Shown: positions 1,681 to 53,578 of the stretch, in pieces
Layout of the letters: the number at the start of each line of letters is the position of its first letter
Numbering within the stretch: position 1 is the first letter of the stretch
From: a phage
Assembly (NCBI GenBank): GCA_025611195.1
Contig: GCA_025611195.1_4718.1
DNA: 64,000 nt
Direction: 5' to 3' (one strand)
Made by a program: the position numbers and the translations under genes
The notes under the pieces: generated by a model
The model's input: only the letters and a program-made list of their open reading frames with translations
Told to the model about the DNA's origin: nothing
Databases searched by the model: none

Positions 1681-4239
1681 TTACTGCTCTTCACGTTCCA
1701 ACAGATACTCGGAAGCGGTAATACCGTTTACCGTACGTACTGCTTTCAGACGAGTATCATCACTCAGAATCACGGTAACAGACTGCAGACCTTTTACTTT
1801 GGTCTCGAAGGTCTTGAATACCTGATCCAGCATACGAGCAATGCTTGGGTTGGTTGCAGCCGATGCGTGAGTGTAACCATTCTGGTTCAGCTTCAGAATC
1901 TTGGCGTTGGTTGGTACACGAAGAACAACATGCGGACGCATTGCGAACACACTGTGGTTAAACCAGTAAGCATCGTTACTATCTTCGTCGGTGACGATGT
2001 CTGGATTAACACGCATGTCTTCGGTAGCCGCGTCTGCCAAACGACGTTCGATTTCGTCAGCATCCAGAGAGCCGTCCTTCTCCAGTTCTGCACGATACTC
2101 ACTCATGGCAACCAGATGACGTTCACGATTCGCTGCAGATTTTTCGTGAGCGGCTTTCAGGTAGTCATGCATGTTGTACAGTTCTGCTATGGAAAGACGA
2201 ATGTTCCACTGACCTTCGCCGTCACGATTGCAGTAGAGACACTTCAGCATGTTGACCCAGGTGTAGTAGCAATTGGAGAACTCATCTTCAATGAACTTTT
2301 GATCCATTTTAAGATCGTGAATCAGCCAACCGGACAGTTCTCCGATATCATCAACGAAGCTAGAGATGGTGGTTTCAGAGAAGTTCTTCGGTACGATACG
2401 TTTGATCAGCTTGTTAACGTCTTTGGTCATGCTATCGTTCAGGAAATGCCAAATACGCAGAGGGATGACGTCACGATACTGTTGCATGATCTGACGATAA
2501 GCTTTGATATCGTCGCTACGACCTTTATCAATAGACAACGCGTCCAGGAATTCATGGATAGCATCCAGCTCTTTGTCGGTATAGGTTCCCAGATAGGAAT
2601 TGACCGTGGCAAGGAATGCTAATGCGTCGTTTTGGTTGACGTCAGTGTTGGTCTGCTGAATGATCGCTACTGCAGCTTTGGTTTCAGCATCCTCAACGCT
2701 TGACGCTGCGATCGCGTCGGTAACAGTAAACAGTTTCATTTCGCGCTGTTCGCCGACAACGATCGGTTCACGTTGAATCGGTTTGTTAAGACTAACGCGA
2801 ACAACTTCTGCTTGCGCGATACGATCCAGTTTTACCATTTCCTGCTCTGCCATACGACGAGCGGTTGGATCTGATTCAAGTTCGATGTATTCCACTTCTT
2901 CCTCCGTGAGGGATGTAATGTCAACAATGGTTTCATGAAGAATTCCGTTTTCGTCGATACGTGCTCGACGAGCGAAGTGTCTGAAGTCATACAACGTTGG
3001 CCAGCGACAATTCGGCGCGTAGTCTTTGGCCTTCAAACGCATCTGCATAAATTCTTCATGTTGAACAACACGACCGTAACGCTTAGCATCTTCGGTCGCA
3101 TCAATTGGATTAACGGTCTTTGTTACCGTAGCGGAACGAGCCGTACGAATGGGTTCCGGTTTAGTCTGCACAGGTTCAGGTTGAACGGATTTCTGTTGTC
3201 CGGCCTTAACATGCCATTCGGGTTCTTCGTACCGTTCAGCAAATTGCTCGGCTGCTGCAAAGATATCATTGATGCCACCAATATCTCCTTCTGGGTTCGT
3301 CGAATATACCCGTGGTTGCGGTGCCTCATAACGCGGCGCTGCGGTAGCAGGTGCGTCATTAACGATAGGATCGTCATCACCAACATCGTACAAACGGTTG
3401 AACGCACAATCCTTCGAATCGATATACGATGGAGCTTGTGGTTGGATAACCGTCGGTCGAGGCTGTGCGCCGTATCCCGGCATTGTTGGAGCCATACCAC
3501 GCATAACTGCCGGGTTAGGTTGGTATTGTGGTTGTGGGTAGGTTCCACCATACGTGGGATATGCGGGCTGTTGCGGTTGACCGTACCCACCGCCAACCAT
3601 CGCATTTGCTTGCGGCCCACGGTAAGTCATCCCCAGTTGCATTACCTGCTGCTTCAGACCACGGGACTTCTGCGCTATTTGCGCTAGACTCCCACTTTTA
3701 TTTAGCTGCGTGTACTTATTCGCGGCTTCCGGGTTAATGCGCGATAATTCAATCGCACGATAATATTCCGGGTATTGATTGGCTTCAAAGAGCCAGGTTA
3801 CGAGGTGATACAGCGCAACTGTGCTCACAGCAGCAGAGACGATCTGGTCGTTGGACGCATTCTGCGGCATCGGGTTGATGTAAGAGAATACGTTCCAACA
3901 ACAGTCTTCAACAAGCGATTCCATCATCATATCGTTATTGGTGTAACGTGCGACGAACTCGGTTTGTATTTTATCCTGTTGGGCGAAGTCTTTCAGGACA
4001 TTGAAGACGGCTTGACGGATTTTGACGATCGTCGCTTCTTGGGTGATGAAGTTATAGTTCTGCTGATATGATGGTTGTTGGTACTGTGGTTGTTGATAGG
4101 TGTTATTCGGGTATGCGCCGTACGGTGGTTGCTGGTACTGTTGCTGGCGAACCTGCTCAGCCGCATAATTAATCGTGCTCGCATAAGGGTTTTCGCTGTA
4201 GCCCATTTGCTGATACATGTTGTTACTGCCATTATACAT
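1681..4239 (-). CDS. large hypothetical protein (852 aa) with Gln/Tyr/Pro-rich low-complexity regions
   Basis: long ORF; N-terminus MYNGSNNMYQQMGYSENPY...YQQPQYQQPSYQQNY and internal GGGYGQPQQPAYPTYGGTYPQPQYQPNP. Confidence 0.7.
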   Translation of the reverse strand: MYNGSNNMYQQMGYSENPYASTINYAAEQVRQQQYQQPPYGAYPNNTYQQPQYQQPSYQQNYNFITQEATIVKIRQAVFNVLKDFAQQDKIQTEFVARYTNNDMMMESLVEDCCWNVFSYINPMPQNASNDQIVSAAVSTVALYHLVTWLFEANQYPEYYRAIELSRINPEAANKYTQLNKSGSLAQIAQKSRGLKQQVMQLGMTYRGPQANAMVGGGYGQPQQPAYPTYGGTYPQPQYQPNPAVMRGMAPTMPGYGAQPRPTVIQPQAPSYIDSKDCAFNRLYDVGDDDPIVNDAPATAAPRYEAPQPRVYSTNPEGDIGGINDIFAAAEQFAERYEEPEWHVKAGQQKSVQPEPVQTKPEPIRTARSATVTKTVNPIDATEDAKRYGRVVQHEEFMQMRLKAKDYAPNCRWPTLYDFRHFARRARIDENGILHETIVDITSLTEEEVEYIELESDPTARRMAEQEMVKLDRIAQAEVVRVSLNKPIQREPIVVGEQREMKLFTVTDAIAASSVEDAETKAAVAIIQQTNTDVNQNDALAFLATVNSYLGTYTDKELDAIHEFLDALSIDKGRSDDIKAYRQIMQQYRDVIPLRIWHFLNDSMTKDVNKLIKRIVPKNFSETTISSFVDDIGELSGWLIHDLKMDQKFIEDEFSNCYYTWVNMLKCLYCNRDGEGQWNIRLSIAELYNMHDYLKAAHEKSAANRERHLVAMSEYRAELEKDGSLDADEIERRLADAATEDMRVNPDIVTDEDSNDAYWFNHSVFAMRPHVVLRVPTNAKILKLNQNGYTHASAATNPSIARMLDQVFKTFETKVKGLQSVTVILSDDTRLKAVRTVNGITASEYLLEREEQ

Positions 4240-4274: not shown

Positions 4275-6071
4275 TCAATCGATTATGTCACGATCGTTAA
4301 TTTCTACAATTTCTTCATCGAATCGACCGACGTCTTTCTTCAAGCCTGCATTTGTTGCTGCAACGTCATTTGCGATTTGTGGGGTAATGATTAACCGACC
4401 GCGTTCATCGATAGGTGCGTACATACTGAACTTCTGACGTCCGGTTGGTTCGGAGTGTGGAAGATTCAGATAGCTTGCGCAGAACGGGATGGAACCACTC
4501 ACCAAACGACTCTCGTCAGCCAACGCAGCACCGCCTGCATTTTGGCTCTGGAGAACAACATGCGTGCTCACTTTGAACAGCATGCAATCGCCCGGTGACT
4601 GAATCGATGTTGCCACTTTCTCACGCTTATCACGATTGCTCTGGATATTGAGAATCGCTTCCGTTGCAACTTGATTGCGCAACGCCTTCTGTACATCGCG
4701 ATTGGTCATCTCTTTACGGTTGTTCTGTCGTTTACCACGTTCCGTGGTTTTAAGATGGAACCCCAGTTTAAAGATGCTTTTACGCACATCCTCCATGACG
4801 TATTCCAACACCATCAATTCCTTACCGAACATCGTCGTGGTATCAACACGACTCATTTCGATAGTAACGTTGTCAATCAGATACGCCATAAATTCGTAGA
4901 AGTCGTCGCAAGGAATATTTTCCTGTTTGAACTTCTTCTGTTGAATTTCATCAACGTAAAGATCGAGACTGTCGATGTGGTGGTTTACATCACGCAACAA
5001 ACGCGCATCCGCATTGTTGTTATTAAAGATAATCAAACCGAGTAATGTACGCCAATGGTCTGGCGCATTAGCGAACTCTTCAACCGGATAGTCTTCCGGG
5101 AAACGATCGTAATAACGGTCGATGAGATATAAGAACGCGCCGACAAGGCCAAGAACAATACGTTCCGTACCTCCACGTCTTACAGCGATTTGAATATCGG
5201 GATGTTTATAACGTACAGCGTTAGCGCTACGGCTTTTACCGCTTTTGCTGATACTAAAGCCTTTAGGAATAACCCCCATGGTGCGATAGATTACCCATTG
5301 GTCGCGCGGAAAATCGCGTTCAGCAAGATTCCGTCCGGTGACGGCTTCGACGCCAGCAAAACGTCGGAAACATTCACCCACCCCATACTTCGCAAAGAGA
5401 TAGTGACCCAGTGTGGTTACGCTGGTGTGGTTGATGTTGTCACCGTTCACTTTACTTTGTTTGGTAAGATGATAGATTTGCGACCAGGGTAACGACAGGT
5501 AATGACGATAATCGATACCCGTTGGTGTATCATTGCTCAGGAACTGATACGGTGTACGTTTAACCGTGATTTTGTCACGCGGAAGCATGATGAACGCCAT
5601 GTCTTTCGTGTAACTGATTACAGGGTCAGCGAGCACTGCACTGAGAATGAAGTTCGCACCACGTAGACGCATTTTACCACCCTGACCTACCGCGGGCAAT
5701 AGGAGAGGATGTCGGATAATGCAGTAGTCCTTTCCTGGTTCGCGGCGGTCACCTGATTCCATCGCACCATACCAGCGGAATTCTAGCATCACCATAAACA
5801 CGTCGGAAGGTGCAAGGTCGAAGGTCAGCTTACCGCTATCCTTCCCTTTGGTTTTCTTTCCTCCGCTTAAGTAGTGGAACTGTTCGCGGGCCATACAACG
5901 ACGCAGGCCATGATACACCAGATCCTTAGGTAAACTATCTTTGCTGTTCCGCCAAAGACGATCAACATAGGACTCAACATCTTGCATCTTATCGACGACG
6001 ATGTTGCGTGCTATCTTCTCGTTCATCTTCGGTGCAAGCTCAGCGACAGCTTTGCAGAATCTAGGATCCAT
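4275..6071 (-). CDS. hypothetical protein (598 aa)
   Basis: long ORF tightly packed in minus-strand gene string; no motif recognised. Confidence 0.7.
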   Translation of the reverse strand: MDPRFCKAVAELAPKMNEKIARNIVVDKMQDVESYVDRLWRNSKDSLPKDLVYHGLRRCMAREQFHYLSGGKKTKGKDSGKLTFDLAPSDVFMVMLEFRWYGAMESGDRREPGKDYCIIRHPLLLPAVGQGGKMRLRGANFILSAVLADPVISYTKDMAFIMLPRDKITVKRTPYQFLSNDTPTGIDYRHYLSLPWSQIYHLTKQSKVNGDNINHTSVTTLGHYLFAKYGVGECFRRFAGVEAVTGRNLAERDFPRDQWVIYRTMGVIPKGFSISKSGKSRSANAVRYKHPDIQIAVRRGGTERIVLGLVGAFLYLIDRYYDRFPEDYPVEEFANAPDHWRTLLGLIIFNNNNADARLLRDVNHHIDSLDLYVDEIQQKKFKQENIPCDDFYEFMAYLIDNVTIEMSRVDTTTMFGKELMVLEYVMEDVRKSIFKLGFHLKTTERGKRQNNRKEMTNRDVQKALRNQVATEAILNIQSNRDKREKVATSIQSPGDCMLFKVSTHVVLQSQNAGGAALADESRLVSGSIPFCASYLNLPHSEPTGRQKFSMYAPIDERGRLIITPQIANDVAATNAGLKKDVGRFDEEIVEINDRDIID

Positions 6072-6110: not shown

Positions 6111-7553
6111 TTACTTTTTCGATGACGTCTTCTCAAGAATCTTGAAAAAGGTCATACCTATACCGACAACGGCCGCAGTTATACTCGCAGCGGCTTTCCA
6201 AACATCGACGTTACGTTGACGTCGCGCTTCTTCCGCTTCACGTTGTCTTTTTGCCTCTTCATCACGTCGACGTATCTCAGCAGCAAACTCGTCGTGCTTA
6301 CGTTTGGCTTCTTCGTCTCGACGACGAAGTTCAGCGACGAATTCTTCATGTTTGCGTTTGGCCTCGTCATCACGACGTTTTAAATCAGCTTGATAATCTT
6401 CGTGTATTTGTCTACGTAGATCATCTTGACGTTTCATTTCGGCTTGGTGTTGTTCCATCCTACGTTTTGATTCGTCTCTAAGCTGATCGAGTTCGGCTTT
6501 GTGTTGTTCATCGCGCAGCTTTGCGTCGGCGCGATGCGCTTCGTGCATCTGTGCGATAACCGCCTTGTGTTCATCCGCCATACGCCGCATTTCAGCCATC
6601 ACCCCTTTAAGGGTTTCTTCTGATGACTTACGTTCATAGCTACGCTGGTCGAAATCATTTTTGTAGGCTTCTTTTTGGATGGGGTCGCGCCAATGCAATG
6701 CCGATTCACGTGTCGGAAAAACATTATACTTCCACATCTCTTTTTCCAAATCTTCGACCGGTACGAAGACGGAGTCGTTATTCCCGAAGGTAACCAACAT
6801 ACCTGGCGCGCCTGCTCCATTCGTTGGTTTTATTTCGAACGCTTTCCCCAGCACGTTAACCCATAGGCTATACGGATTATGAAAGTCGGGCGGCGTCCAA
6901 TGGATAGTGAGTTGCGTTCCGAGAATCCGGAAACCCTCTGTCTTTCCTGTCAAGCTCCGCGCACATGTTGCGATGTAGGGGTGATCAATCCCTTTCGTAA
7001 CATGGTCTGCGCTTTTGTATTCTCCTTTAACTTTTACGATTGCCACGTTGATTTGCGCGACATAAATAGGTTGATTAAAGTTCAACGTGTTGAGGTCAAT
7101 TTGACATATCTCATCCAGCGTATCGTACCAGTCTTGCTGGTCTAATAGACGCGGTATTTTCTCTGTGTTAACGGTGCGATGGATATGCGGTTTCCTTATC
7201 GCATAACCGGTGCCGTTTTTAACGCGGAGTATATCCCGACGTCTACCCGCGTAGACGAAGTTTCTGAATGCACCATTCGCATTAGATATGTCATGGCTGT
7301 CAACTATTACAGGACTACGAAATTTTGAACGTCGTACGATCCTGAATGTATTGCCGTCCTCAACTCTACCAGGAATGTACTGGAACATATTGTCGGAGGT
7401 GATAACCAACACGGTATGGCCGGATTCATTAATACATGCCCACCCTAATTCCAGGTCATACAACGGTTCAGCATAACCGTCAATGCGATATGCGTGCGTA
7501 CCATCCCACGGTTCGAACGCGGTATCACATATTGGCATGGAGGGCATCGTCAA
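6111..7553 (-). CDS. hypothetical protein (480 aa) with C-terminal charged coiled-coil repeats and C-terminal transmembrane anchor
   Basis: repeats RRRDEEAKRKHEEFVAEL / RRRDEEAKRKHDEFAAEI then hydrophobic WKAAASITAAVVGIGMTFFKIL at C-terminus; preceded by promoter-like motif 7695-7716. Confidence 0.7.
   Translation of the reverse strand: MTMPSMPICDTAFEPWDGTHAYRIDGYAEPLYDLELGWACINESGHTVLVITSDNMFQYIPGRVEDGNTFRIVRRSKFRSPVIVDSHDISNANGAFRNFVYAGRRRDILRVKNGTGYAIRKPHIHRTVNTEKIPRLLDQQDWYDTLDEICQIDLNTLNFNQPIYVAQINVAIVKVKGEYKSADHVTKGIDHPYIATCARSLTGKTEGFRILGTQLTIHWTPPDFHNPYSLWVNVLGKAFEIKPTNGAGAPGMLVTFGNNDSVFVPVEDLEKEMWKYNVFPTRESALHWRDPIQKEAYKNDFDQRSYERKSSEETLKGVMAEMRRMADEHKAVIAQMHEAHRADAKLRDEQHKAELDQLRDESKRRMEQHQAEMKRQDDLRRQIHEDYQADLKRRDDEAKRKHEEFVAELRRRDEEAKRKHDEFAAEIRRRDEEAKRQREAEEARRQRNVDVWKAAASITAAVVGIGMTFFKILEKTSSKK
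6205..6400 (-). repeat. in-frame tandem direct repeats (~54 bp unit, about 3 copies) encoding the charged coiled-coil segment of the 480-aa protein
   Basis: repeated DNA blocks ...cgtcgacgtatctcagcagcaaactcgtcgtgcttacgtttggc / ...cgtctcgacgacgaagttcagcgacgaattcttcatgtttgcgtttggc. Confidence 0.6.
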
Positions 7554-7694
7554 CCTCCATCAGATTGAAAACTATCACGCATAATGCATTTCCCTTTTCT
7601 TGTTCTTATCAAGCCGACAGCCGACGGTTTCAGCATCGTCCCTAGCGCGAGAACGACCTTACGTGTTGTCTATGCCTTATTAATCGCAGGCGTC

Positions 7695-7716
7695 TGTCAC
7701 CTAGGTAATGTAAGCG
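7695..7716 (-). promoter_or_regulatory. early-promoter-like motif (minus-strand reading CGCTTACATTACCTAGGTGACA), degenerate copy of the motif at 15865-15888 and 53555-53578
   Basis: shared core TAC/TATTACCTAGGTGA upstream of a minus-strand gene start and just downstream of a hairpin. Confidence 0.4.
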
Positions 7717-7755
7717 TCAAATTTTTTCTATTTATAACGATAAACGGCATAGAAA

Positions 7756-7785
7756 CCTCCCCCAACCCTTACGGGCTGAGGGAGG
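7756..7785 (-). terminator. palindromic hairpin element (CCTCCCCC-AACCC-TTAC-GGGCTGA-GGGAGG) downstream of the 740-aa gene
   Basis: inverted repeat; same AACCC...GGGAAGG-type architecture as the other copies. Confidence 0.5.
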
Positions 7786-7884
7786 CTGACTTATGTATCA
7801 CGGTGCCGGATGAATGTCCGGTGCAATGAAACCATCCGCAACGTTGTCGTCAAGAATATCATCCAACGAAGCAGCTACGGTAGT

Positions 7885-10107
7885 TCAGTTAGTCTGAACC
7901 GGCAGCTTGATGTTTTCAGTGTAGACCTTACGCAGGTTCACAACGTTAATCAGACCCAGCAGCGGGCAGTTGTTAACGAAGCGGCAGCGAGGCTGAACCA
8001 TGGTTTCTTTAGAAACCTGACCGTTACGGGTAACCTGAGCAACAGATACCAGTTCCGGTACATACAGGAACATACCGAAGGTCAGCGGATCCGGAGAACC
8101 CTGGATACCACGAGACAGGGTCACGAAGATCTTATCACGCAGCAGGACGTTCGGGTTATCTACAACCACGAAGTTGAAGCTTACACCAACGGTACGGAAA
8201 TCACCATCGGTCTGCAGGAACTGCGGGATGTAGTTGTCGGTTGCTACTACGCAACGCGGTTTCTCATCAGCGTTGGAAGACAGCAGCTGCAGAGCTGGCT
8301 GATAACCAGACTCGGAGTACATGCGATATGCCATCTCACGAATCACGTTCATGATCGCAGCGGACACTTCGGCACGACGTTCTGCAGTGGTGGTACCCTG
8401 AACAGATTTCGCCAGGTCCAGATTGATTTCTTCGAACCACGGACGGATCAGGTAACGACCGAAACCTTCGATCTGGATATCACCGAACTGACGGAAGCGA
8501 GAGGTCGCAACCGCTTTCAGTGCATCTTTGTAGCTGAACAGTTTCTCAACCATCAGGTTGTCGAAACGTGCGTTAGCAGCTTGGATCAGAACGTCCAGGT
8601 CAGCAGCGTTTTCTTCCCAATCCAGCGGACGAGGAATAGAGAACGGAGCCAGCAGGCCGATTGCGTAACGTTCTTGCTTCATGTTGAAGTCAAGGTGTTT
8701 ACCACGTTCACGACGGTTGCTGTTGTTACGGCGAATACGCAGTTCGTAACCAACCAGTTTGAAGCTCAGGTCGTCAGCCAGGTCTTTAAATTCTTGGCTC
8801 TTACGCGGCTGTTCGATGTTGTCCTGATCAACCAGGCGATACAGTTCAGCGTTAGCACCGTTAACACGCAGACCTGCTTTCTCTACGTTGGAAGAACCGT
8901 AAACTTCGATAGCCAGCTGAGCAGCAGATTTCGCATCGATGATGTCCTGCAGCGCTTCAGCTTTCGCGCCTTTAACGTCAACGGTGTTCTCATCAACGAA
9001 GATGGAGTGGGTGTCGAACGCCAGGGTCATTTTGCGGAAGTCGCCTTCCAGGGATTTCTGGAAACCGTTGGTAATCAGACCGGATACGTCGAACGGAACG
9101 TAAGAGGTCTTGCTGTGCTTGGCTGATTTGATTTCCACCAGGATTTTGGTCAGCGTGATCTGAGCATCCAGCGCGTCGGTGTTGTCGCTGTAACCGTTAG
9201 CCAGAATGCTATCGTCTTCAGCGATACCGATCATGTCGATCAGTTTATCAACAGCCAGGTAAGACGTTTTGTAAGTTACGCCTTTGATCTCGATGTCGCG
9301 CGGAGCAACGATAGTTTTGTCAACGAAGTACTGCGCGTTAGCATCGTCAGCACGATAGATCGGATGCAGATCGGTCACGTCGTTGGACAGAACGTCGTTG
9401 TACATGAACGCATCCAGCAGCGGACGACGTACCCAATCAGCCGGAGTACCGTCAGCGTTACGACGCAGGTGGTTGAACACCAGCGGACGACGGAAAGATA
9501 CATCATAACCGATCTGGTTCGGAGCCAGAACGATGGTGTTGTACAGTTCGTTACCCATGCGGCTCAGACGAGAAGCCTTCACGTTGAACACAACGGAGTA
9601 CGGCATCATGTCACGCAGTTCTTTCTGGTCGTAGGACAGCTGAACCAGTTCTTCAGATTCGCAACCGCAGGAATCAGCAGCCATCATGACGAAGTTAGAG
9701 CTGTCAACTTCACGGCCAGACGGAGTGGTGCTGATGTTCATGGAACGTGCTTGTTTAGCATATTCCACCGGGTTGCCATGAGCCAGCATGATCAGTGCTG
9801 CTGCACGAGCCTGCTGTGCGTTCATGGTGAACAGCTGTTCTTCAATACGCTGCTTCTCTTCCGGAGTGGTGGTTTCGAAGCCCAGCATGGACAGAACCGG
9901 TTCTTCTGCTTTACGGATGTCGCTGCTGAAGCTCTTAACATCCATATCGTTAACCAGTTTGTCCATGGATTTGAAATCAACCTTAGAAGCAGATTCCATA
10001 GACAGGAAGGTGTTCTCCAGACCTTTGTCTGCTGGTTTGCTACCATTAGCGGTCAGGAACTGGCGAGTGGCCGCGACCTGTTGGCTAAGAAGGGTTTTAT
10101 CATTCAT
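7885..10107 (-). CDS. abundant protein, candidate major capsid protein of a jumbo phage (740 aa); identity not verifiable from sequence alone
   Basis: strongly biased codon usage (cgt/ctg/gaa/ggt-rich) typical of very highly expressed genes; size fits phiKZ-type MCP; N-terminal LSMESA motif shared with paralog family; hairpin after stop. Confidence 0.7.
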   Translation of the reverse strand: MNDKTLLSQQVAATRQFLTANGSKPADKGLENTFLSMESASKVDFKSMDKLVNDMDVKSFSSDIRKAEEPVLSMLGFETTTPEEKQRIEEQLFTMNAQQARAAALIMLAHGNPVEYAKQARSMNISTTPSGREVDSSNFVMMAADSCGCESEELVQLSYDQKELRDMMPYSVVFNVKASRLSRMGNELYNTIVLAPNQIGYDVSFRRPLVFNHLRRNADGTPADWVRRPLLDAFMYNDVLSNDVTDLHPIYRADDANAQYFVDKTIVAPRDIEIKGVTYKTSYLAVDKLIDMIGIAEDDSILANGYSDNTDALDAQITLTKILVEIKSAKHSKTSYVPFDVSGLITNGFQKSLEGDFRKMTLAFDTHSIFVDENTVDVKGAKAEALQDIIDAKSAAQLAIEVYGSSNVEKAGLRVNGANAELYRLVDQDNIEQPRKSQEFKDLADDLSFKLVGYELRIRRNNSNRRERGKHLDFNMKQERYAIGLLAPFSIPRPLDWEENAADLDVLIQAANARFDNLMVEKLFSYKDALKAVATSRFRQFGDIQIEGFGRYLIRPWFEEINLDLAKSVQGTTTAERRAEVSAAIMNVIREMAYRMYSESGYQPALQLLSSNADEKPRCVVATDNYIPQFLQTDGDFRTVGVSFNFVVVDNPNVLLRDKIFVTLSRGIQGSPDPLTFGMFLYVPELVSVAQVTRNGQVSKETMVQPRCRFVNNCPLLGLINVVNLRKVYTENIKLPVQTN

Positions 10108-15037: not shown

Positions 15038-15811
15038 TTAATCAGGATCGGCGTAGAAATGGTGAGGATAGCCGGAGTACGATCCTGCGTTACCGGCTAT
15101 GGATTCTTTCTGGGAATCGACGACGAGCGCATAGAACTGTCGGGAATTTGTTAGCGTTGAGAAATAAGCGGAAAGGACTTTTTCATTCAATGCATCACAA
15201 GGTAGGCAGGTGCGACCGCAAAACGTCACGATACGGCCGTCAGGATAGATCTCACGAATCATTCTCCACTCACCGATATCCACTGGTGATGGCGCTGCTA
15301 CACCACCTGTTATCGTTAAGTAACGATCGTACGTGGTATGGCATTCAGGATGAATATAGATCGGCTTGTTCGTTTCGACAGGTTCCGAAGTATCTCGACG
15401 ACTAAGAAGCTCAACGACTTCAAGATAAATCGTTGGTAGATCGCGGAGAATACCGGTGCTACGACGTTTCTTTGTGATTCGCGGACGAATCTCGTTGAGA
15501 GCGTATTCGAGCTTACGTTCAGCTTCGTACGCATCGAGTTTTATCAAGCGACCCGGTTCATCGGAATGATCCTGAGTTACGTAAACGAAATACGTGTCGC
15601 CTTTTGCAGCGTGAAAGATTCGAGCGACCTTAAATGTTTCTACGGTACGATAACCAAGGCGCGATTGATTTTCCACAGGAGAAAATATCCAATGCCGTCC
15701 TTCGTCAGCCTCAACAATTTCGTTGAAACTATCTGTCTGTTCTGGGACCTGGTAGTCAGCCAGTAATGTGTCGAGAGCATCATCAGCCAGTTTGATGTAA
15801 ATATCTGTCAT
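15038..15811 (-). CDS. hypothetical protein (257 aa), paralog of 14050-14952
   Basis: shared C-terminal domain with adjacent gene; preceded by promoter-like motif. Confidence 0.65.
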   Translation of the reverse strand: MTDIYIKLADDALDTLLADYQVPEQTDSFNEIVEADEGRHWIFSPVENQSRLGYRTVETFKVARIFHAAKGDTYFVYVTQDHSDEPGRLIKLDAYEAERKLEYALNEIRPRITKKRRSTGILRDLPTIYLEVVELLSRRDTSEPVETNKPIYIHPECHTTYDRYLTITGGVAAPSPVDIGEWRMIREIYPDGRIVTFCGRTCLPCDALNEKVLSAYFSTLTNSRQFYALVVDSQKESIAGNAGSYSGYPHHFYADPD

Positions 15812-15864: not shown

Positions 15865-15888
15865 TATCACCTAGGTAATATAGTCGCG
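15865..15888 (-). promoter_or_regulatory. conserved early-promoter-like motif (minus-strand reading CGCGACTATATTACCTAGGTGATA) followed by 5'-UTR inverted repeat AGTGATAACA...TGTTATCAC (15844-15870)
   Basis: near-identical to motif at 53555-53578; placed between a hairpin and the next gene start. Confidence 0.5.
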
Positions 15889-19250: not shown

Positions 19251-20829
19251 AGCGTTTCACTCCTACGATGGTACCGACAAGAATTCTCGGTACGAATAAA
19301 CTACGATGTTTGAACCATGAAGCGGTTGTTGGGATACGTTTGATGGCTTCGATAAGCCCGATTAGCGTATAACATCCCCGGCTGTTCTTCTTAGGCCAGT
19401 ACTTTTTATCTAAACCTAATACCGCAAACAGTTCATCCACCAGATTGGGATAACAACACAACGCTTCAAGCGTCTCAACCTGTAACTGACTTAAATCTAA
19501 CAGTATCGCCAGACGAACGTGGTAATCACTCCGTAAGTCTAACTGATCTTTCGCTTCAAGATCACCAACGTCGGTTAATGTCCACGCGTCTCTTGCGTAG
19601 CGGTATTTACCCTTCCAAACCTCAAGGAAAAAAGGAGATTGGTAATGGCATTTTGACCATTCTGGGTACTCGCGGAACCACCGAACAAGATCGGGATGGA
19701 ATTCACCTTCTTCGGCTAACGCGTCCAACGTCACCAACAGGTTAGGTTGTTCAGGATCGATAGCGAGTAGCGCGGTGAAAAGCGTGCTTGATGGAAGCTC
19801 GGTCTCCACGCTCGATGGTGGCAGCCATTCATCCAAATCGGGATACCGATACGCTTGAATCGATGCACCCTGTTCCGGCAAGAACGAATCACGAAGAATG
19901 TCCTGATACTGCACCACCATACCACCACGACGTGCACGGGATTTATCACGCACCGAGAGGCTCGGTTTGTAAAGGTACTCTTCGGGGAGTATCTGTTGGT
20001 GTACTTGAACCGGATACCGTGCTACGATGTGTGTTGGTGTGTCGTACGTGTAACGGTAAGAGAATGTAGCGTTGTACGAAGAACTGTTCTCATTCTTCTC
20101 TGGCTTCGGAGCGTCAGTGAAATCAAATTGACCAGAGATCTCTTCTTGCATTTCCCTGATAACCAATTTAACGCTCTTACCGTCACCTGCGACTGTCGTC
20201 ATGGTGGTTGCACGGTTGTCGAACCCGTCTCTAAGGTATTCGCTGAACTTATCCTTGTAACCCGCTATTGCTTCTCGGTGTGTGTGAATAACTTTTAACA
20301 GCATGAGAAACTGTGTAGGGATCGCATAGCTGTATTCAGCACTGAGAAACGCGGCAACATGCTGACTTGTGAGCAAACGTTTCATGTCGTACCACCAACG
20401 TTCGGCGGTGACCTGATCCTCGAACCGTTTGGTGATCTGCATGGTCGCAACCATCGTACTGTAAACAGGTACTAGCGATACGCCAAGGTTACGGTCTTCA
20501 AATACTGGAAGACTGTTTCGTTTGTAAACGGTATCGTACATGGACGCCTGTTCTTCAGGAACAACGTTAAGCTCGATTTGGATAAACCCGTCAGCAGGCC
20601 CTTTTACATCCTGATCAACAACTTGCGGCGGTTGCTCGTTCGCAGCGCTCATTTTAGCGTGAAGAGCTTCCCCTCGAAAAAGAATATTCTCGCGATTGTA
20701 ATCCCACCCGCAAAGCTCGCTGATCTGCCGTAATACCGCGATTGCAACTGGACGTGTTACCGTCGCGTATACGTCATTGATTTTTCGATCAAGTTTAGGC
20801 ATCGATGTCATCCTCGCTAATTTCACCAT
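19237..20829 (-). CDS. hypothetical protein (530 aa)
   Basis: long ORF. Confidence 0.7.
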   Translation of the reverse strand: MVKLARMTSMPKLDRKINDVYATVTRPVAIAVLRQISELCGWDYNRENILFRGEALHAKMSAANEQPPQVVDQDVKGPADGFIQIELNVVPEEQASMYDTVYKRNSLPVFEDRNLGVSLVPVYSTMVATMQITKRFEDQVTAERWWYDMKRLLTSQHVAAFLSAEYSYAIPTQFLMLLKVIHTHREAIAGYKDKFSEYLRDGFDNRATTMTTVAGDGKSVKLVIREMQEEISGQFDFTDAPKPEKNENSSSYNATFSYRYTYDTPTHIVARYPVQVHQQILPEEYLYKPSLSVRDKSRARRGGMVVQYQDILRDSFLPEQGASIQAYRYPDLDEWLPPSSVETELPSSTLFTALLAIDPEQPNLLVTLDALAEEGEFHPDLVRWFREYPEWSKCHYQSPFFLEVWKGKYRYARDAWTLTDVGDLEAKDQLDLRSDYHVRLAILLDLSQLQVETLEALCCYPNLVDELFAVLGLDKKYWPKKNSRGCYTLIGLIEAIKRIPTTASWFKHRSLFVPRILVGTIVGVKRYGAR

Positions 20830-21178
20830 ATCCTTGTTGTCGATATCCGGTATAATGAATCAGACTGCTCTGTAGAAGCTCTTTAACGAGCCCTAGACGC
20901 GTTTTATCTGCTTCATTGGACGTTTCCATTAATGTTTCTATTTCGTTGTTTAAAACAGCGTATAGCGCTTCTAACGGCAATCCTTGGATGATTGGTTTGC
21001 TGGTGCCTTCTGGCAATGCCGCAACAGGAATCTGCACGACGGTTTCATGCGCAGTATGCGGGTTAATACGACAAATATACATACCTGGTACTGAATGTCG
21101 CGGGCACGCCGCTACCAAGCATGTCTGTTGTTGCGCACCGTTAAGTGCGAGTGGTAGAAATTTTGCTTCACGTCTCAT
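20795..21178 (-). CDS. hypothetical protein (127 aa)
   Basis: ORF at head of block, after hairpin 21229-21251. Confidence 0.5.
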   Translation of the reverse strand: MRREAKFLPLALNGAQQQTCLVAACPRHSVPGMYICRINPHTAHETVVQIPVAALPEGTSKPIIQGLPLEALYAVLNNEIETLMETSNEADKTRLGLVKELLQSSLIHYTGYRQQGYGEISEDDIDA

Positions 21179-24665: not shown

Positions 24666-25772
24666 TTAAAAGTAATATTTCAGCGCCTCGCGAGAGACCT
24701 CAAGCATAGCCGCCGTTGAATTCGTAAAGAACTCGGCATAGCCCACAAGCGGCACCTTGATCCACGCGGTATACGCTGTAAGGTATCGAGAAAGGGCTAC
24801 CATAGCATCATCAGAAGCAGTAGTAACTGACAACTGACCTTGTTGACGATAAACGTCGTTAAGTTTTGCTTGTAGATTCCCTGCAATTTCGAGTAACTCA
24901 CTGGCGTACTTTTTACGATGGTAACTAACCAGTAAATCAACACCCGTATTCACAGACTCGAGCAGAATACCAACTTGTTCTAATGTTGGCATTGTAACCA
25001 CCATATCCCGTTCAACGGACGGTACGTCCTGGACTTCAAACCGTGCGGATTGAATGGCGAGGGACTGTTGAATTGATCCGGAACCTGAGGCGGTAACCTG
25101 ATCGAGTCGCAGCATACGGTTGCCCAGTAACGTTACGTTGACGAGTCTCGATTCGTTCAGCGTACTGTAGACTTTATGCAATAACGTATACGCATCGCGA
25201 TTAATCACATCGATTAATGCGGTATCCGTCTGTTTTAAGATAATGTCGAGCGCTCTATCTAACGTATTAGCGAACTGCTTGAAATCATCACGGAACGACG
25301 AAGACAAGAGATATTCAGCGATTGCCAAATTCTGTTTGTATAATGTATTCCCGGTCGTGAAATCGAACCCAAAACTGTTCCCATACCGTAGATGTGGTGC
25401 CAGCATTGTCGAAGCTTCGAAGCTTTGCGCGATGGGTTTACGACCAACGGCTTTTGTGTAGTGGCGACGGATGTTACTGAGTTCGAGTTGTAGTGCGCGA
25501 CTACGATCGATAAACCGTGCGATAAACGCAGTAATGTTCCGCAACGTTGTCCAGATTGCATCGATGATGGCTTTGATGATTTTCATCGCAAGCTGATTGT
25601 ACGATTCCATCGTGAGGAGATCAGCACTTTCTGTGGTATAGCTGGTCGGCAGCATACCGCCCGCTTGTTGATAAATAAGCTGGTGAATTTGTCGTTGCGT
25701 TGCTGTCTCTGGCACAGGTAATGTCTTTAACAAGCTTAACGCTTGAATCTGTCCATCATAGGTCTGCAGCAT
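24666..25772 (-). CDS. hypothetical protein (~369 aa), member of E-[SG]-[FY] paralog family
   Basis: start moved to ATG 25772 with GAGGA SD; motif LTMESYNQLAMKIIKAIIDAIW. Confidence 0.65.
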   Translation of the reverse strand: MLQTYDGQIQALSLLKTLPVPETATQRQIHQLIYQQAGGMLPTSYTTESADLLTMESYNQLAMKIIKAIIDAIWTTLRNITAFIARFIDRSRALQLELSNIRRHYTKAVGRKPIAQSFEASTMLAPHLRYGNSFGFDFTTGNTLYKQNLAIAEYLLSSSFRDDFKQFANTLDRALDIILKQTDTALIDVINRDAYTLLHKVYSTLNESRLVNVTLLGNRMLRLDQVTASGSGSIQQSLAIQSARFEVQDVPSVERDMVVTMPTLEQVGILLESVNTGVDLLVSYHRKKYASELLEIAGNLQAKLNDVYRQQGQLSVTTASDDAMVALSRYLTAYTAWIKVPLVGYAEFFTNSTAAMLEVSREALKYYF

Positions 25773-27057
25773 TGCCGGTTTCCTCAAGTTCGAGATGTGC
25801 ATCAAGATAATCATTAAGACCGTCGATGACGTCACAGACAGTTAACAGGAATCGGGCAAAAGCGACCGCCTGGAAACCGACGACGTTACGCGCGATACCC
25901 ACACGCTGAACGATAGCGGATGAAGCGGTATCGTTGTTGTCCATCTGTTGTAGCAAACGTTCATAAGGCTGAATCCATTCGTCCTGGTCGGCAAGGCTTG
26001 CTTCAAGACACCGTTTAAATTCCAACTGTCGTAGCGTAGACCATAACGTACTTAATGCGTTGATAATCGCGTTGGTTCCGTCGATAACATCGTTCAACGG
26101 CAAGAAACGGAATCCGTCTTTTGCTGATTGGAAAGATACGGCTTCCCACACAACGCTGAATTGCGTTCCTGTTGCGTCTTCGATGTCGTGTACTTTAAGA
26201 TAGGAAGCACCAACAGGTACGTCAACGACGATATCGTCTGTTCCGGTAGGCTTTAACGGCTTCTCGCATAACGCATCGTTGATGGCCTCGAGAATATTCT
26301 CCCAACAGGCTTCGTTTTCTGCAGCGATACCTTCTTTGTTATCCGCTGATGGTGCTTTTAGTAGCTGCATTAATAACGGATCGAGTTGACGATGCCATGC
26401 TGCGAGGATCCCTGTGTTCGTTACGATGTTTTCTGCGGTTTGCCGTAAATCAGCAATACTGCTTACCGCACCGCCTTTCGGATGAAGATATCGCCAGTTG
26501 TAGGGAAAGTTCTCCCAGAATGCGTTATCTTCATTAACATCGTATTCGGAAATAGTTTTCAACGCAGCCGCTTTCTTTAATAACGGCTTCACCTGACGAA
26601 CGAATCGACGATAACAACGATTACAGATATCGATCGCGTAGCGGTATAACTCGTTCATGTAAAGCCATAATGCACGGGTTGCTTCTTTTGAGGTCTTGTC
26701 AAAACTTTCCATGTTCAAGCTCATCCCGCTGGAAGTTTCCTCTTCCAGACCCTCGATGATTTGGTTTGGGTCCATTCCCATTCCGGCTGCTGCGGTTGTT
26801 GCGATATGTTTGATCGTGCTGATATCGCGTTCTTCAACTTCAGTCATGTTTGGGACAATATCCAGCCGGAGTTTATTTAATGTTTGAAGGTGTTGTTCAC
26901 CTTCTTTCATCACCGTGTTTGTTTCGTCGATTGAGTGAAACTGATTCTCAATATTACTGGCATCGAGAATATTGCCAGCGATACCGAACGATTCTACAGG
27001 TTCATCATCAATCCCTTGAAACAACGATGTCATGGGTTGTTGTAACACGTTTTCCAT
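25756..27057 (-). CDS. hypothetical protein (433 aa), member of E-[SG]-[FY] paralog family
   Basis: motif LNMESFDKTSKEATRALWLY; same architecture as neighbours. Confidence 0.7.
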   Translation of the reverse strand: MENVLQQPMTSLFQGIDDEPVESFGIAGNILDASNIENQFHSIDETNTVMKEGEQHLQTLNKLRLDIVPNMTEVEERDISTIKHIATTAAAGMGMDPNQIIEGLEEETSSGMSLNMESFDKTSKEATRALWLYMNELYRYAIDICNRCYRRFVRQVKPLLKKAAALKTISEYDVNEDNAFWENFPYNWRYLHPKGGAVSSIADLRQTAENIVTNTGILAAWHRQLDPLLMQLLKAPSADNKEGIAAENEACWENILEAINDALCEKPLKPTGTDDIVVDVPVGASYLKVHDIEDATGTQFSVVWEAVSFQSAKDGFRFLPLNDVIDGTNAIINALSTLWSTLRQLEFKRCLEASLADQDEWIQPYERLLQQMDNNDTASSAIVQRVGIARNVVGFQAVAFARFLLTVCDVIDGLNDYLDAHLELEETGNAADL

Positions 27058-28504: not shown

Positions 28505-29821
28505 TTAACCTTTGGTATAGGCTTTAACGAGAGTGTTGATAAATGAAGTCAGTGCGCGAAGATATTGGTAAGCGAATTGGTTTTCAATACGGTTCTCTTT
28601 ACCGCAAAGCAGAATCGCGCGCTTAACGAGTTTAGGGTAGATCTCGACGTACGGTTGGTAGCTCGCATCAAAATTCTGCTCGTTGAAGCGTTTCATGGTG
28701 ATTTCCTGGATGCGCTCCATGGTGCGAATTTTATTGCGAGAGAACATCTCAGAGAAAGCGTGTCCGCGTTTTGTTACCATCAACAGATCTTTCGCGAACG
28801 TCAGCTGTCGAACGCTACGCAAATCGTCAGGTGTTGGTAGGACGTACGTTTCCGGTTCACTATCCCATTCAACATCTTCAACGATAATATCCAAGTCGAG
28901 GTAACGTTTAACCGCATCGATGATGTTGTCTTTTGACGCATCGAATTCTTTCAAGAAGACTGCGCCGTTGATGTAGCGGATACGTTTTCCGGAAACCGTT
29001 GGGGTGATAACGTCAGCACCTTCCACAGAACCACGATTTTCCAGCGTTGATTTGACAGCGTGCAAGAAAGACAGATAATCAACGGGAAGTTTTTCGACCT
29101 TATCTAAATGGAAGTCGAAGATGTTTAATCCTAAACCATCAATAACTGAATAGCCGTCCGATTTAAGGAACATCTGATTGAAGGTATCGATGTTGCTTTT
29201 CAGTGTGTCTACACCACCAACTTTGTTACGGTTAGGGAAAAGTGCCCACCATTCAGGTTTAAACGCAACCTCTTTATTTTCCGTGTATTTGCCTTTGGGC
29301 ATTTGTTCGAGGTTCGCAACGGCTTTCTGAAAATTGCGTGTTTCGTCGTAAACAAGACGGGTGAGCTTCTCGAAGGCTGCTGCCAGAGTCAGGGCAATAT
29401 CAACGATGATATCCCAGATCTTTTTCATGGCTTTTACAACGGTGTCCTTAAACCCCTCAACAACCAAAGCTTCTCCAACCTCAACACGATCGGTTGGAGT
29501 CAGCAACGCTTCGGAGGGCAGACCCAGAGCAATCGATGCGGATTCTTGAACGTTACGAACTAATGCAACGTCACAGTAGTTAGCCGATTCGATAGTCGGA
29601 GCAACATCAAAACTGATTTCCCGCAGTGCAGCAACAGCAGGGAAAGCACGATCGAGTGCATCTTCATGTTCGTCGATTGTCGCCAAACGTAATTCAACAC
29701 CATCGGCATCGATGACTTCAGCGGTAGGCTCCACAGCAAGCGCTTCAGCAACAATAGGATCTTTTTCAAACGCCTCAAGGCTGATATCGCCTTGTGTCGT
29801 AAATAGTGGTATGTGTACCAT
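28505..29821 (-). CDS. hypothetical protein (~438 aa), member of paralog family
   Basis: start moved to ATG 29821 with GGAGA SD; paralogous to 27206-28495. Confidence 0.7.
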   Translation of the reverse strand: MVHIPLFTTQGDISLEAFEKDPIVAEALAVEPTAEVIDADGVELRLATIDEHEDALDRAFPAVAALREISFDVAPTIESANYCDVALVRNVQESASIALGLPSEALLTPTDRVEVGEALVVEGFKDTVVKAMKKIWDIIVDIALTLAAAFEKLTRLVYDETRNFQKAVANLEQMPKGKYTENKEVAFKPEWWALFPNRNKVGGVDTLKSNIDTFNQMFLKSDGYSVIDGLGLNIFDFHLDKVEKLPVDYLSFLHAVKSTLENRGSVEGADVITPTVSGKRIRYINGAVFLKEFDASKDNIIDAVKRYLDLDIIVEDVEWDSEPETYVLPTPDDLRSVRQLTFAKDLLMVTKRGHAFSEMFSRNKIRTMERIQEITMKRFNEQNFDASYQPYVEIYPKLVKRAILLCGKENRIENQFAYQYLRALTSFINTLVKAYTKG

Positions 29822-53554: not shown

Positions 53555-53578
53555 TATCACCTTAGTAATATAGTCGTG
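53555..53578 (-). promoter_or_regulatory. conserved early-promoter-like motif (minus-strand reading CACGACTATATTACTAAGGTGATA) followed by 5'-UTR inverted repeat AGGTGATAAG...CTTATCACCT (53533-53562)
   Basis: near-identical to 15865-15888; sits between hairpin 53618-53660 and start of P11. Confidence 0.5.

Follow-up and report, generated by a model that had tools for sequence, protein, structure and literature searches.

The gene described here is assigned as the Goslar-lineage orthologue of the Chimalliviridae core gene cg35 (phiKZ gp122, RAY gp001), and the 64,000-nucleotide stretch of phage DNA in which it lies (hereafter the window) comes from a Goslar-like jumbo phage. Its product is predicted to be a tail-anchored membrane protein with a cytoplasmic N-terminal domain, and it appears to be made early and to be absent from the virion. 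Taken jointly, these features suggest an early tail-anchored cg35 protein with an ER/K-like stalk that acts as a membrane tether or spacer, a reading that we hold tentatively, as plausible but short of probable. The finding matters because cg35 (phiKZ gp122) has already been recorded as a core gene yet has no known function, a point on which an earlier, sequence-only reading of the window was silent. That reading had described a membrane-anchored early protein with tandem repeats that encode coiled-coil heptads and can vary in copy number. The open reading frame (ORF), the repeats, the terminal helix, and the promoter motif stood up to analysis; the heptads and a rapid variation in copy number did not. 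The features are listed in Table 1.

Table 1. Features of the cg35 gene and its upstream region in the window
Feature	Position	Strand	Basis or remark
Terminator-like G+C-rich hairpin 3' of the capsid gene, followed by TTTCTATGCCG	7745..7785	(-)	arms 7773-7785 and 7756-7768
GAAAAAATTT, preceding TACATTACCTAGGTGA	7719-7728	(-)	
Early-promoter-like motif TACATTACCTAGGTGA	7697..7712	(-)	150 nt upstream of ATG
Shine-Dalgarno GGAGG	7554..7558	(-)	6 nt before ATG at 7547
Coding sequence, 478 aa + stop	6111..7547	(-)	ORF list; orthology to Goslar gp040
N-terminal globular domain, ~aa 1-290, mixed beta/alpha	6678..7547	(-)	hhalign; without Pfam, NCBIfam or PDB relative
YERKSSEE motif (aa 304-311) at the N-domain/stalk junction	6615..6638	(-)	alignments
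Charged alpha-helical stalk, seven 18-residue units (aa 317-442)	6222..6599	(-)	autocorrelation, charge pattern, AF2
Three best-kept 54-nt DNA repeat copies, in frame, encoding aa 380-433	6249..6410	(-)	repeat search, 67-70% identity
Predicted C-terminal transmembrane (tail-anchor) helix AAASITAAVVGIGMTFF (aa 452-468), small-residue-rich	6144..6194	(-)	hydropathy
Basic C-terminal tail KILEKTSSKK (aa 469-478) + stop codon	6111..6143	(-)	sequence

Gene assignment and start codon

The ORF list of the window contains a minus-strand ORF at 6111-7553. The true start is assigned to the ATG at 7547, with a product of 478 aa. Relatives with 460- and 489-aa alleles carry an in-frame TAA two codons 5' of this ATG, and this rules out initiation from the TTG at 7553. 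The window protein and gp040 of Escherichia phage Goslar are equal in length and 98% identical, with 0 gaps. No match to the gene was found in complete E. coli genomes and PLSDB plasmids.

Goslar gp040 is entered as cg35 in Table S3 of a published core-gene survey, where cg35 appears as a gene without an assigned function, restricted to phages that encode chimallin (PMC10299810). It is one of the 21 core genes reported as family-specific, all of which, except chimallin, were without a function in 2023 (PMC10299810). The homology searches made in this study, a non-systematic test of that restriction, returned no relatives outside chimallin-encoding phages. The gene is flanked by the major capsid gene and the nvRNAP-beta gene in the window, in Goslar, PhiPA3, RSL2, and SPN3US, and in 46 IMG/VR loci. 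PhiPA3 gp138, 201phi2-1 gp202, SPN3US gp76, and RSL2 ORF116 are members of the family, and its PHROGs (7727, 7286, and 15024) are all annotated as function-unknown. The literature retrieved under gp040 or gp122 concerned mostly unrelated proteins of Asesino, PhiPA3, and SPN3US.

N-terminal domain and junction motif

Pfam, NCBIfam, and PDB sequence searches returned no family for the window protein. The FUSC family of Pfam scored 13.7 bits against a cutoff of 30.9 and was dismissed as below threshold. phrog_7727 was a weak match (E 1e-4). By hhalign, aa 29-288 matched two other chimallivirus clusters with probabilities of 98.2% (E 6e-14) and 96.2% (E 2e-9). Iterated HMM-versus-sequence searches stayed inside the Goslar clade, and the clades were connected by profile-profile comparison only. 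A search with the N-domain among 1.84 billion representatives found only three clusters, and a profile search of a 5.8-billion-protein set added only two further proteins. Two AF2 models, built on shallow alignments, had mean pLDDT values of 55 and 43, with the N-domain unreliable in both.

The YERKSSEE motif, at the junction of domain and stalk, resembles a juxtamembrane RKDxSE motif of other clades. Its short BLAST matches to SPN3US gp76 (E 0.002) and RSL2 ORF116 (E 0.058) are single comparisons of uncertain significance. A site for the phiKZ-type prohead protease at YERKSSEE or RKDxSE, which would free the protein from the membrane, was considered and downgraded, because the pattern of conservation misfits the S/A/G-X-E protease motif (A-X-E in SPN3US). 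SSE falls at aa 308-310 in the window protein and RKDxSE occurs in other clades, but what is conserved is a Ser at P2, not P3. SPN3US gp76 has SSE though the SPN3US protease uses A-X-E, and the P0017 sequence is without an S/A/G-X-E-type motif between domain and anchor.

Early-promoter-like motif and timing of expression

An early-promoter-like motif upstream of the gene, noted in the sequence-only reading, was confirmed. TACATTACCTAGGTGA occurs at three sites in the window, against 0.14 expected. It was unchanged in six related loci, one of which encodes a protein only ~30% identical. In Goslar, chmA is preceded at 65-80 nt by TATATTACCTAGGTGA, itself preceded by GAAAAAAATTT, and 15 of 16 positions of TACATTACCTAGGTGA agree with this chmA early-promoter motif. 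The chmA transcription start of Goslar has been mapped, at 5 min post infection, in the TATATTACCTAGGTGA stretch. The gene is predicted to be transcribed from a chmA-type early promoter and to head an operon that runs into the nvRNAP beta-subunit gene. The terminator-like hairpin on the capsid side is kept in relatives through base changes on both arms. A hairpin with the element TTTATGC(C/T)GT was found again in several intergenic regions of the window.

Published phiKZ RNA-seq gives the time course of the orthologue. Control counts of PHIKZ122 at 5, 10, 15, 20, and 30 min were 3405, 4255, 2580, 2200, and 945, and those under chmA knockdown at the same times were 2895, 4753, 4960, 5776, and 5927. 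The PHIKZ122 counts track those of the nvRNAP gene PHIKZ123 and run opposite to those of the capsid gene PHIKZ120. By these data, expression of phiKZ gp122 is early and nucleus-independent. An action early in infection, as had been proposed for the gene, is supported by the invariant motif, its 15/16 match to the chmA promoter, and PHIKZ122 transcripts that are present at 5 min and lower by 30 min. Virion proteomics of Goslar detected 151 proteins, trace amounts of the nvRNAP protein gp039 included, and gp040 was absent. The protein appears to be early and non-virion.

Antisense knockdown of PHIKZ122 has been reported to cause a weak drop in plaques and in ChmA. The same ASO caused a strong change in phage transcription at 30 min, by which it was grouped with chmA, the nvRNAP subunits, and PicA. 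The knockdown phenotype could be partly polar on gp123.

Repeats and helix type of the stalk

The Arg/Glu/Lys-rich peptide repeat quoted in the sequence-only reading was recovered, as the copies LKRRDDEAKRKHEEFVAE, LRRRDEEAKRKHDEFAAE, and IRRRDEEAKRQREAEEAR. Its DNA counterpart, described as 54-bp in-frame tandem repeats, was recovered in part. Copies of 54 nt in frame do occur, and a weaker 54-nt register continues to 6542 with one 87-nt (54+33) step; the best copies are only 67-70% identical, and Tandem Repeats Finder reported no repeat scoring at least 30.

At the protein level, the main signals in BLOSUM autocorrelation were those of lags 18 (z=10.4) and 36 (z=6.3), with weaker ones at lags 11, 29, and 47. 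The unit of 18 residues corresponds to five helical turns; the repeats are old, and the units have diverged from one another. The heptads and coiled coil claimed previously were not borne out. No lag below 11, lag 7 included, reached z>2 in this autocorrelation, and the best fixed-register a/d hydrophobic occupancy of the stalk was 0.25, against 0.8 for GCN4. Charged residues make up 56% of the stalk and hydrophobic residues 16%; the last three units are 67-72% charged and the N-terminal units less so. Residues three or four positions apart show an excess of opposite charges (i+3, z=6.0; i+4, z=4.7), and like charges are depleted. AF2 placed one helix over aa 310-475, with pLDDT ~80-90 across aa 330-430; a single long helix in such a model is compatible with a monomer and a bundle alike. 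In periodicity and composition the stalk resembles a charged single helix of the ER/K type and not a canonical coiled coil. Each 18-residue unit carries a narrow Leu1-Ala8-His12-Phe15 stripe, by which weak bundling of stalks could still occur.

Length alleles

The proteins of relatives are 460, 478, 489, and 507 aa long, with steps of 18 and 11 aa. These length classes are lineage alleles. All 14 full-length members listed in the 90% cluster have 478 aa. The proposal that variation in repeat number changes the length of the stalk therefore holds between relatives, in the 18- and 11-aa classes, and not within the 90% cluster, where length is constant.

The stalk might also be a contingency locus, in which frequent slippage of the repeats switches stalk length inside a phage population. 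The repeats are in frame and the length classes lie one unit apart, as such a locus would have it. The DNA copies are under the TRF threshold and, at 67-70% identity, are not slippage-prone. Rapid switching of copy number is also unlikely given that length is constant within the lineage and the comparison with Goslar is free of gaps. One lineage has a recombinant stalk instead, with a dS of 0.15 in the N-domain against 0.81 in the stalk. We consider frequent switching highly improbable.

C-terminal hydrophobic helix

A single terminal hydrophobic helix had been proposed, and AAASITAAVVGIGMTFF is the only segment of its kind by the Kyte-Doolittle scale. The 19-residue maximum of 1.76 (aa 453-471) is the sole value above 1.6 in the protein. 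The helix ends 10 residues before the C-terminus, and by hydropathy the protein has no signal peptide or second TM segment. On the Eisenberg scale the hydrophobicity of the helix averages 0.69, and its hydrophobic moment is low (0.19). Its 17 uncharged residues are rich in Ala and Gly and make it no more than marginally hydrophobic; a crude Hessa-scale sum, calculated from approximate scale values, was +1.35 kcal/mol. The 10-residue tail that would cross the membrane contains four lysines. The dN/dS of the tail region ranged from 0.02 to 0.14, and purifying selection was strongest there in two of four pairwise comparisons (dN/dS 0.02).

Among relatives, every Goslar-clade sequence has a TM-like C-terminal helix, as do 20 of the 22 members of the RSL2/SPN3US-type cluster and 7 of the 15 in the phiKZ-type cluster. 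Wherever present, it ends 0-18 residues from the C-terminus. The anchor is not universal, since the other 8 of 15 in the cluster with phiKZ-like PA7, PhiPA3, and 201phi2-1 have no TM-like tail; in the phiKZ/PhiPA3/201phi2-1 clade the tails are amphipathic and charged. PhiPA3 gp137, which is inserted upstream, was considered as a separate anchor and has no hydrophobic segment. At the sequence level the three-part architecture first described for the window protein holds, here as a globular N-domain, a long helical stalk, and a C-terminal hydrophobic anchor, and orthologues at the same position in most chimallivirus clades keep it.

Proposed role and alternative explanations

From the architecture and timing, we infer a role as an early membrane tether or spacer. 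[quoted passage not shown] The stalk would set the N-domain ~20 nm off the membrane (~140 residues x 0.15 nm). Gain or loss of a unit of 18 or 11 residues would shift this spacing by whole turns (~2.7 or 1.65 nm), so that the orientation of the N-domain to the anchor would be roughly kept. The N-domain may capture or position a phage component in the vesicle-to-nucleus phase. In its most specific and rather unlikely form, this proposal makes cg35 the first phage-encoded tail-anchored organelle tether. The protein would insert into the EPI vesicle membrane from the cytoplasm in the first minutes. Recruitment or positioning by its N-domain would then bring the nascent chimallin shell, or some other early factor, to the distance set by the stalk. 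The genome could in this way leave the lipid compartment and enter the protein nucleus, with stalk-length alleles tuning the gap.

In every clade the gene directly follows the major capsid gene on its downstream side, and the protein may be a platform on the membrane where procapsids assemble. It would be fixed in the inner membrane by its anchor, and the portal or the capsid shell would be nucleated or held there by the N-domain, much as T4 proheads start on the membrane; the protein would stay behind at prohead departure. According to a review, chimallivirus capsids form on the inner membrane; absence from the virion suits an assembly factor, and giant phages have no confirmed scaffold counterpart in the literature. 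Nevertheless, the terminator-like hairpin and an early promoter of its own set the gene apart from the capsid gene, and PHIKZ122 transcripts come early, with a time course that runs counter to that of the capsid gene. The plaque defect on knockdown is weak, against +++ for the capsid gene. Furthermore, the family is reported to be confined to phages that encode chimallin; Prichard et al. note that some other core genes occur in PBS1. A procapsid platform is unlikely on this balance. About as doubtful is a C-terminal helix that serves as a protein-protein element, for oligomerisation or for insertion into the chimallin shell or another lattice, with the protein soluble or shell-associated. Its marginal hydrophobicity, small-xxx-small patterns typical of helix packing, the amphipathic charged tails of the phiKZ/PhiPA3/201phi2-1 clade, and the specificity of the family for nucleus-forming phages would fit such an element. 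However, a hydrophobicity of 0.6-0.8 with a moment of ~0.2 falls in the transmembrane, not the surface-helix, region of the Eisenberg plot. The helix is also extreme C-terminal and Lys/Arg-flanked in ~30 divergent sequences, and several proteins stop exactly there, which is the classic tail-anchor pattern.

A factor for the assembly, delivery, or regulation of the nvRNAP, co-expressed with the downstream beta subunit, is quite improbable. Such a factor would account for the conserved adjacency and co-orientation with the nvRNAP beta gene, for the parallel read counts of PHIKZ122 and PHIKZ123, and for the place of the PHIKZ122 ASO among the strong effects on phage transcription at 30 min. That transcription effect may be polarity on gp123, and the plaque phenotype is much weaker than for the nvRNAP subunits. 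A membrane anchor fits poorly with an enzyme active inside a protein-bounded nucleus. gp122 is not known to be a subunit of purified phiKZ nvRNAP.

Comparison with known systems

T4 gp40 acts with the portal protein gp20 in membrane-bound prohead initiation. T4 proheads start on the membrane (PMC5694885). A non-virion, membrane-associated helper among head genes would suit the place of cg35 beside the capsid gene; no homology was detected, and the window gene is predicted to be early, not late.

The E. coli proteins ElaB, YqjD, and YgaM are small, ribosome-binding, C-tail-anchored inner-membrane proteins. They share with the window protein a cytoplasmic N-terminal part, a helical linker, a single TM segment at the extreme C-terminus, and a very short tail. 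They differ in that no sequence similarity was found (Pfam, NCBIfam) and that the N-domain of the window protein has ~290 aa. Golgins and SNAREs are eukaryotic tail-anchored tethers and fusogens that capture or approach another structure at a set distance. The likeness, by analogy only, lies in the tail anchor and the elongated membrane-proximal helical region; the stalk of the window protein looks ER/K-like, with no hydrophobic-seam coiled coil, and neither a SNARE motif of heptads nor a Pfam match was found. Myosin VI/X and caldesmon contain ER/K single alpha-helix (SAH) domains. The stalk resembles them in being >55% charged, in its strong i+3/i+4 opposite-charge enrichment, and in its few hydrophobic residues, and departs from them in the Leu1-Ala8-His12-Phe15 stripe and the less charged N-terminal units.

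Nucleus-forming phages first form a lipid vesicle and then a protein nucleus, and their capsids are assembled on the inner membrane. In the literature searched, no phage-encoded membrane protein for the vesicle, nucleus, or capsid-assembly steps was found, and the terms "transmembrane" and "membrane protein" are absent from the recent reviews consulted. cg35 is a concrete candidate for this missing link between phage proteins and membranes, as its product appears early, is absent from the virion, is predicted to be tail-anchored in most clades, and has a stalk of quantised length. The other cg35 clades share a homologous N-domain and the same capsid/nvRNAP-beta position, and most have a charged helix and a C-terminal hydrophobic helix. 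The Goslar clade differs from them in its 18-residue-repeat stalk, in being without the juxtamembrane RKDxSE motif, and in having the longest stalk between N-domain and anchor (145-192 residues, against 67-124 in other clades). Unlike the Goslar clade, the phiKZ/PhiPA3 clade is without the TM-like tail. This anchor-less clade includes the model phages phiKZ, PhiPA3, and 201phi2-1, which may explain why the feature has been overlooked.

Gene identity and neighbourhood

At the DNA level, the region shares 97.3% identity with Escherichia phage vB_EcoM_Goslar, a jumbo phage that forms a nucleus; its counterpart of the gene is gp040, annotated 'hypothetical protein'. The open reading frame 6111-7553 of the sequence-only reading is real, but it starts at the ATG at 7547 and not at the TTG at 7553. 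GGAGG lies 6 nt before this ATG, and relatives carry an in-frame TAA two codons upstream of it. RefSeq gp040 is also 478 aa long and is 98% identical to the window protein, without gaps. The flanking features are listed in the table.

Features in and around the gene, with the recurrent regulatory elements
Feature	Position	Strand	Remark
gp040 orthologue	6111-7547	-	478 aa
phiKZ-type major capsid gene	7885-10107	-	upstream of gp040 orthologue; Pfam PhiKZ_MCP, E 1.6e-217
nvRNAP (non-virion RNA polymerase) beta-subunit gene	4275-6071	-	downstream of gp040 orthologue; phrog_2943
gp038 orthologue	1681-4239	-	852 aa
Plus-strand ORF	7584-7829	+	81 aa
Terminator-like hairpin	7756-7785		after capsid gene
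16-nt motif TAYATTACYWAGGTGA	7697-7712, 15867-15882, 53557-53572	-	also locus L058, 22963-22978
Hairpin with TTTATGC(C/T)GT	7745-7785		G+C-rich, CCTCCC...GGGAGG type
Same element, other intergenic regions	upstream of 15038-15811, 20795-21178, 25756-27057, 28505-29821, 48676-49128, 53067-53489, 53664-54065	-	strand of the genes

The second gene downstream of the gp040 orthologue on the same strand, which encodes 852 aa, corresponds to Goslar gp038 ('hypothetical'), found in virions at an estimated 17-39 copies (bioRxiv 10.64898/2026.04.21.720040, Table S4); gp40 may therefore head a transcription unit with both virion and non-virion products. The 81-aa ORF lies wholly inside the capsid-gp40 intergenic region, across the hairpin and promoter motif, has no annotation in Goslar, and is probably spurious.

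Family and conserved gene order

No relatives of the window protein were found in Pfam, NCBIfam, or PDB, and a search of 1.84 billion proteins with the N-domain alone recovered just three clusters at 50% identity. PhiPA3, RSL2, SPN3US, and a distant relative of Goslar all keep the gene order DnaB helicase, small virion protein, capsid, X, and nvRNAP beta, and sequence comparison establishes both this synteny and the family membership of X, the gene between capsid and polymerase. X was extracted from each of 47 IMG/VR loci retrieved via the polymerase gene. In profile-profile comparison, the Goslar-clade N-domain matched the RSL2/SPN3US type (98.2%, E 6e-14) and the phiKZ/PhiPA3 type (96.2%, E 2e-9), showing that the N-domains of the three sequence clusters are homologous. 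This agrees with the published grouping of Goslar gp040, phiKZ gp122, and RAY gp001 as core gene cg35, 'hypothetical' and marked unique to chimallin-encoding phages (Prichard et al. 2023, PMC10299810, Table S3).

Promoter and leader

Changes on both arms preserve the terminator-like hairpin in relatives. Approximately 45 nt downstream of it lies the promoter motif TACATTACCTAGGTGA, preceded by GAAAAAATTT. The 16-nt form TAYATTACYWAGGTGA has only three sites in the 64 kb window, against 0.14 expected, and the motif upstream of gp40 is unchanged in relatives, down to one with a protein just ~30% identical. In Goslar, TATATTACCTAGGTGA, preceded by GAAAAAAATTT, is located 65-80 nt upstream of chmA, the chimallin gene, with TAYATTACYWAGGTGA in exact form, and the chmA transcription start was mapped within that stretch from 5-min RNA-seq. 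The early-promoter-like motif reported in front of the gene is thus confirmed, and TAYATTACYWAGGTGA likely marks the early (virion RNA polymerase) promoters of the strongest class.

Four distinct relatives, marine or other (L011, L013, L015, and L016), have a related element, TAYATTAC, upstream of their cg35 gene; it was not found there in other clades. The recurrent hairpin followed immediately by TTTATGC(C/T)GT resembles a terminator joined to what may be a late promoter element of the TATG type, presumably linked to the phiKZ late-promoter motif.

Expression, virion content, and knockdown

Normalised reads of PHIKZ122, the phiKZ orthologue, at 5, 10, 15, 20, and 30 min were 3405, 4255, 2580, 2200, and 945 in the control and 2895, 4753, 4960, 5776, and 5927 under chmA knockdown (Gerovac et al. 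2025, Source Data Fig. 3b). The second replicate was alike, and PHIKZ122 parallels the nvRNAP gene PHIKZ123; the capsid gene, by contrast, rose from ~21,000 to 121,000 reads only with nucleus formation (Gerovac et al. 2025). Thus, cg35 is early and nucleus-independent in phiKZ. For gp40 in Goslar, the promoter evidence points in this direction too, in line with the early action proposed from sequence.

gp040 is absent from the Goslar virion protein sheet of ~151 Goslar proteins, which is complete and whose detection reaches three peptides of nvRNAP gp039 (bioRxiv 10.64898/2026.04.21.720040, Table S4). In a phiKZ antisense screen, PHIKZ122 knockdown lowered plaques and ChmA weakly (+). It was among the knockdowns named for a strong effect on phage transcription at 30 min, with polarity on gp123 possible.

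Repeat stalk

The protein comprises an N-domain of ~290 aa, a stalk, and a C-terminal hydrophobic helix. The tandem repeats claimed for the stalk are strong as an 18-residue protein period and weak as 54-nt DNA copies: three copies at 6249-6410 share 67-70% identity in a repeat search, a fainter register extends to 6542, and Tandem Repeats Finder reported none. BLOSUM autocorrelation of aa 312-448 peaked at lags 18 (z=10.4), 36 (z=6.3), and 54 (z=3.8), with minor peaks at 11, 29, and 47; no lag below 11, lag 7 included, exceeded z=2. Seven in-register units cover aa 317-442.

The stalk is not the heptad coiled coil that had been proposed, because it is highly charged (56%) with few hydrophobic residues (16%), and hydrophobic a/d occupancy in the best fixed heptad register is 25%, versus 80% in GCN4. 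Residue pairs of opposite charge are strongly over-represented at i+3 (z=6.0) and i+4 (z=4.7), and those of like charge are depleted at both. This charge pattern resembles an ER/K single alpha-helix, with an additional thin stripe at unit positions 1, 8, 12, and 15 running straight along an 18/5 helix. In the AF2 model, of low overall confidence, aa 310-475 form one unbroken helix, with confidence highest in the repeats.

Length alleles

Close relatives have discrete lengths of 460, 478, 489, and 507 aa, all differing in the stalk: one 18-aa unit deleted, 11 aa inserted, or 11 + 18 aa inserted. These are whole-turn quanta (18 residues, 5 turns; 11 residues, ~3 turns). In the 90% cluster to which the 478-aa form belongs, 14/14 full-length members among the matches listed are 478 aa; the 489- and 507-aa forms fall in a neighbouring cluster. 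The predicted length variation therefore exists as lineage alleles and not as rapid slippage; a slippage-driven contingency locus is largely refuted and now highly improbable.

One 507-aa lineage (L055 1501-3024) compared with the window gene has a near-identical N-domain (98% aa, dS 0.15) and a stalk (73% aa, dS 0.81) as diverged as those of distant lineages, which points to recombination of stalk modules inside the gene. The N-domain (dN/dS ~0.07), stalk (0.07-0.22), and tail (0.02-0.14) are all under purifying selection. The leader of the 507-aa allele carries a 51-nt insertion relative to the window (L055 ~1350-1400) with two short palindromes, CCTTCTTGACGATATCAAGAAGG and the GCATGACGC..GCGTCAGC pair; the rest of the 150-nt leader is well conserved across Goslar-like phages.

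C-terminal helix and proposed role

The single terminal hydrophobic helix was recovered as described: AAASITAAVVGIGMTFF (aa 452-468), followed directly by KILEKTSSKK, is the sole strongly hydrophobic segment (Kyte-Doolittle 19-residue maximum 1.76; mean Eisenberg hydrophobicity 0.69, moment 0.19). This architecture is kept well outside the Goslar clade. In all Goslar-clade, 20/22 RSL2/SPN3US-type, and 7/15 phiKZ-type sequences, the 17-residue stretch with the highest hydrophobicity sits 0-18 residues from the C-terminus, in most cases after a charged helix and an RKDxSE motif. The other 8 phiKZ-type tails, including PA7 (a phiKZ-like genome used as stand-in for phiKZ gp122), PhiPA3, and 201phi2-1, are amphipathic and charged. 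The linker from N-domain to anchor spans 145-192 residues in Goslar-like phages versus 67-124 in other clades.

We tentatively propose, mostly from architecture, that cg35 is an early tether or spacer. The predicted tail-anchored protein would hold its N-domain in the cytoplasm on a rigid spacer of ~20 nm and may act early at the inner membrane or the inner-membrane-derived early phage infection (EPI) vesicle, whose membrane-acting components, according to reviews, have not been identified. Reviews also place capsid assembly on the inner membrane, and a procapsid assembly platform would fit the gene position but not the timing; we consider it unlikely. It is similarly doubtful that the terminal helix is a non-membrane interaction helix, a reading favoured by the amphipathic phiKZ-type tails and opposed by the hydrophobic majority elsewhere. 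A factor linked to nvRNAP, the neighbour whose expression cg35 parallels, is less probable still.

Tethers of this general type, tail-anchored and with a helical spacer, are known; in a phage, and especially in the biology of nucleus-forming phages, such an architecture would be new. The family is already catalogued, solely as 'hypothetical', and the literature searched held no mention of a membrane anchor or function for it. The question becomes directly testable in a tractable host.

Further observations

PhiPA3, 201phi2-1, PA7, and relatives (L005 3949-4989, L036, L039, L047, and related loci), the clade to which the Pseudomonas model phages belong, have lost the TM-like tail; most other chimallivirus clades retain it. 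A juxtamembrane R-K-D-x-S-E/D directly before the anchor is conserved in cg35 of L017-L025, L040, L043, L046, and L048-L054. The Goslar clade has RRQRNVDVWK in its place and a similar YERKSSEE at the stalk start (window 6615-6638).

Many draft assemblies that carry the label E. coli (O157 among them), Shigella flexneri, or one of several Salmonella serovars contain Goslar-like contigs of ~236-248 kb (proteins P0020-P0047), and one fragment bears the label Clostridioides difficile. Neither the 5,426 complete E. coli genomes nor the PLSDB plasmids gave a match, which suggests that the phage was carried over or persists in a carrier state in cultures of the isolates, or that the assemblies are contaminated.
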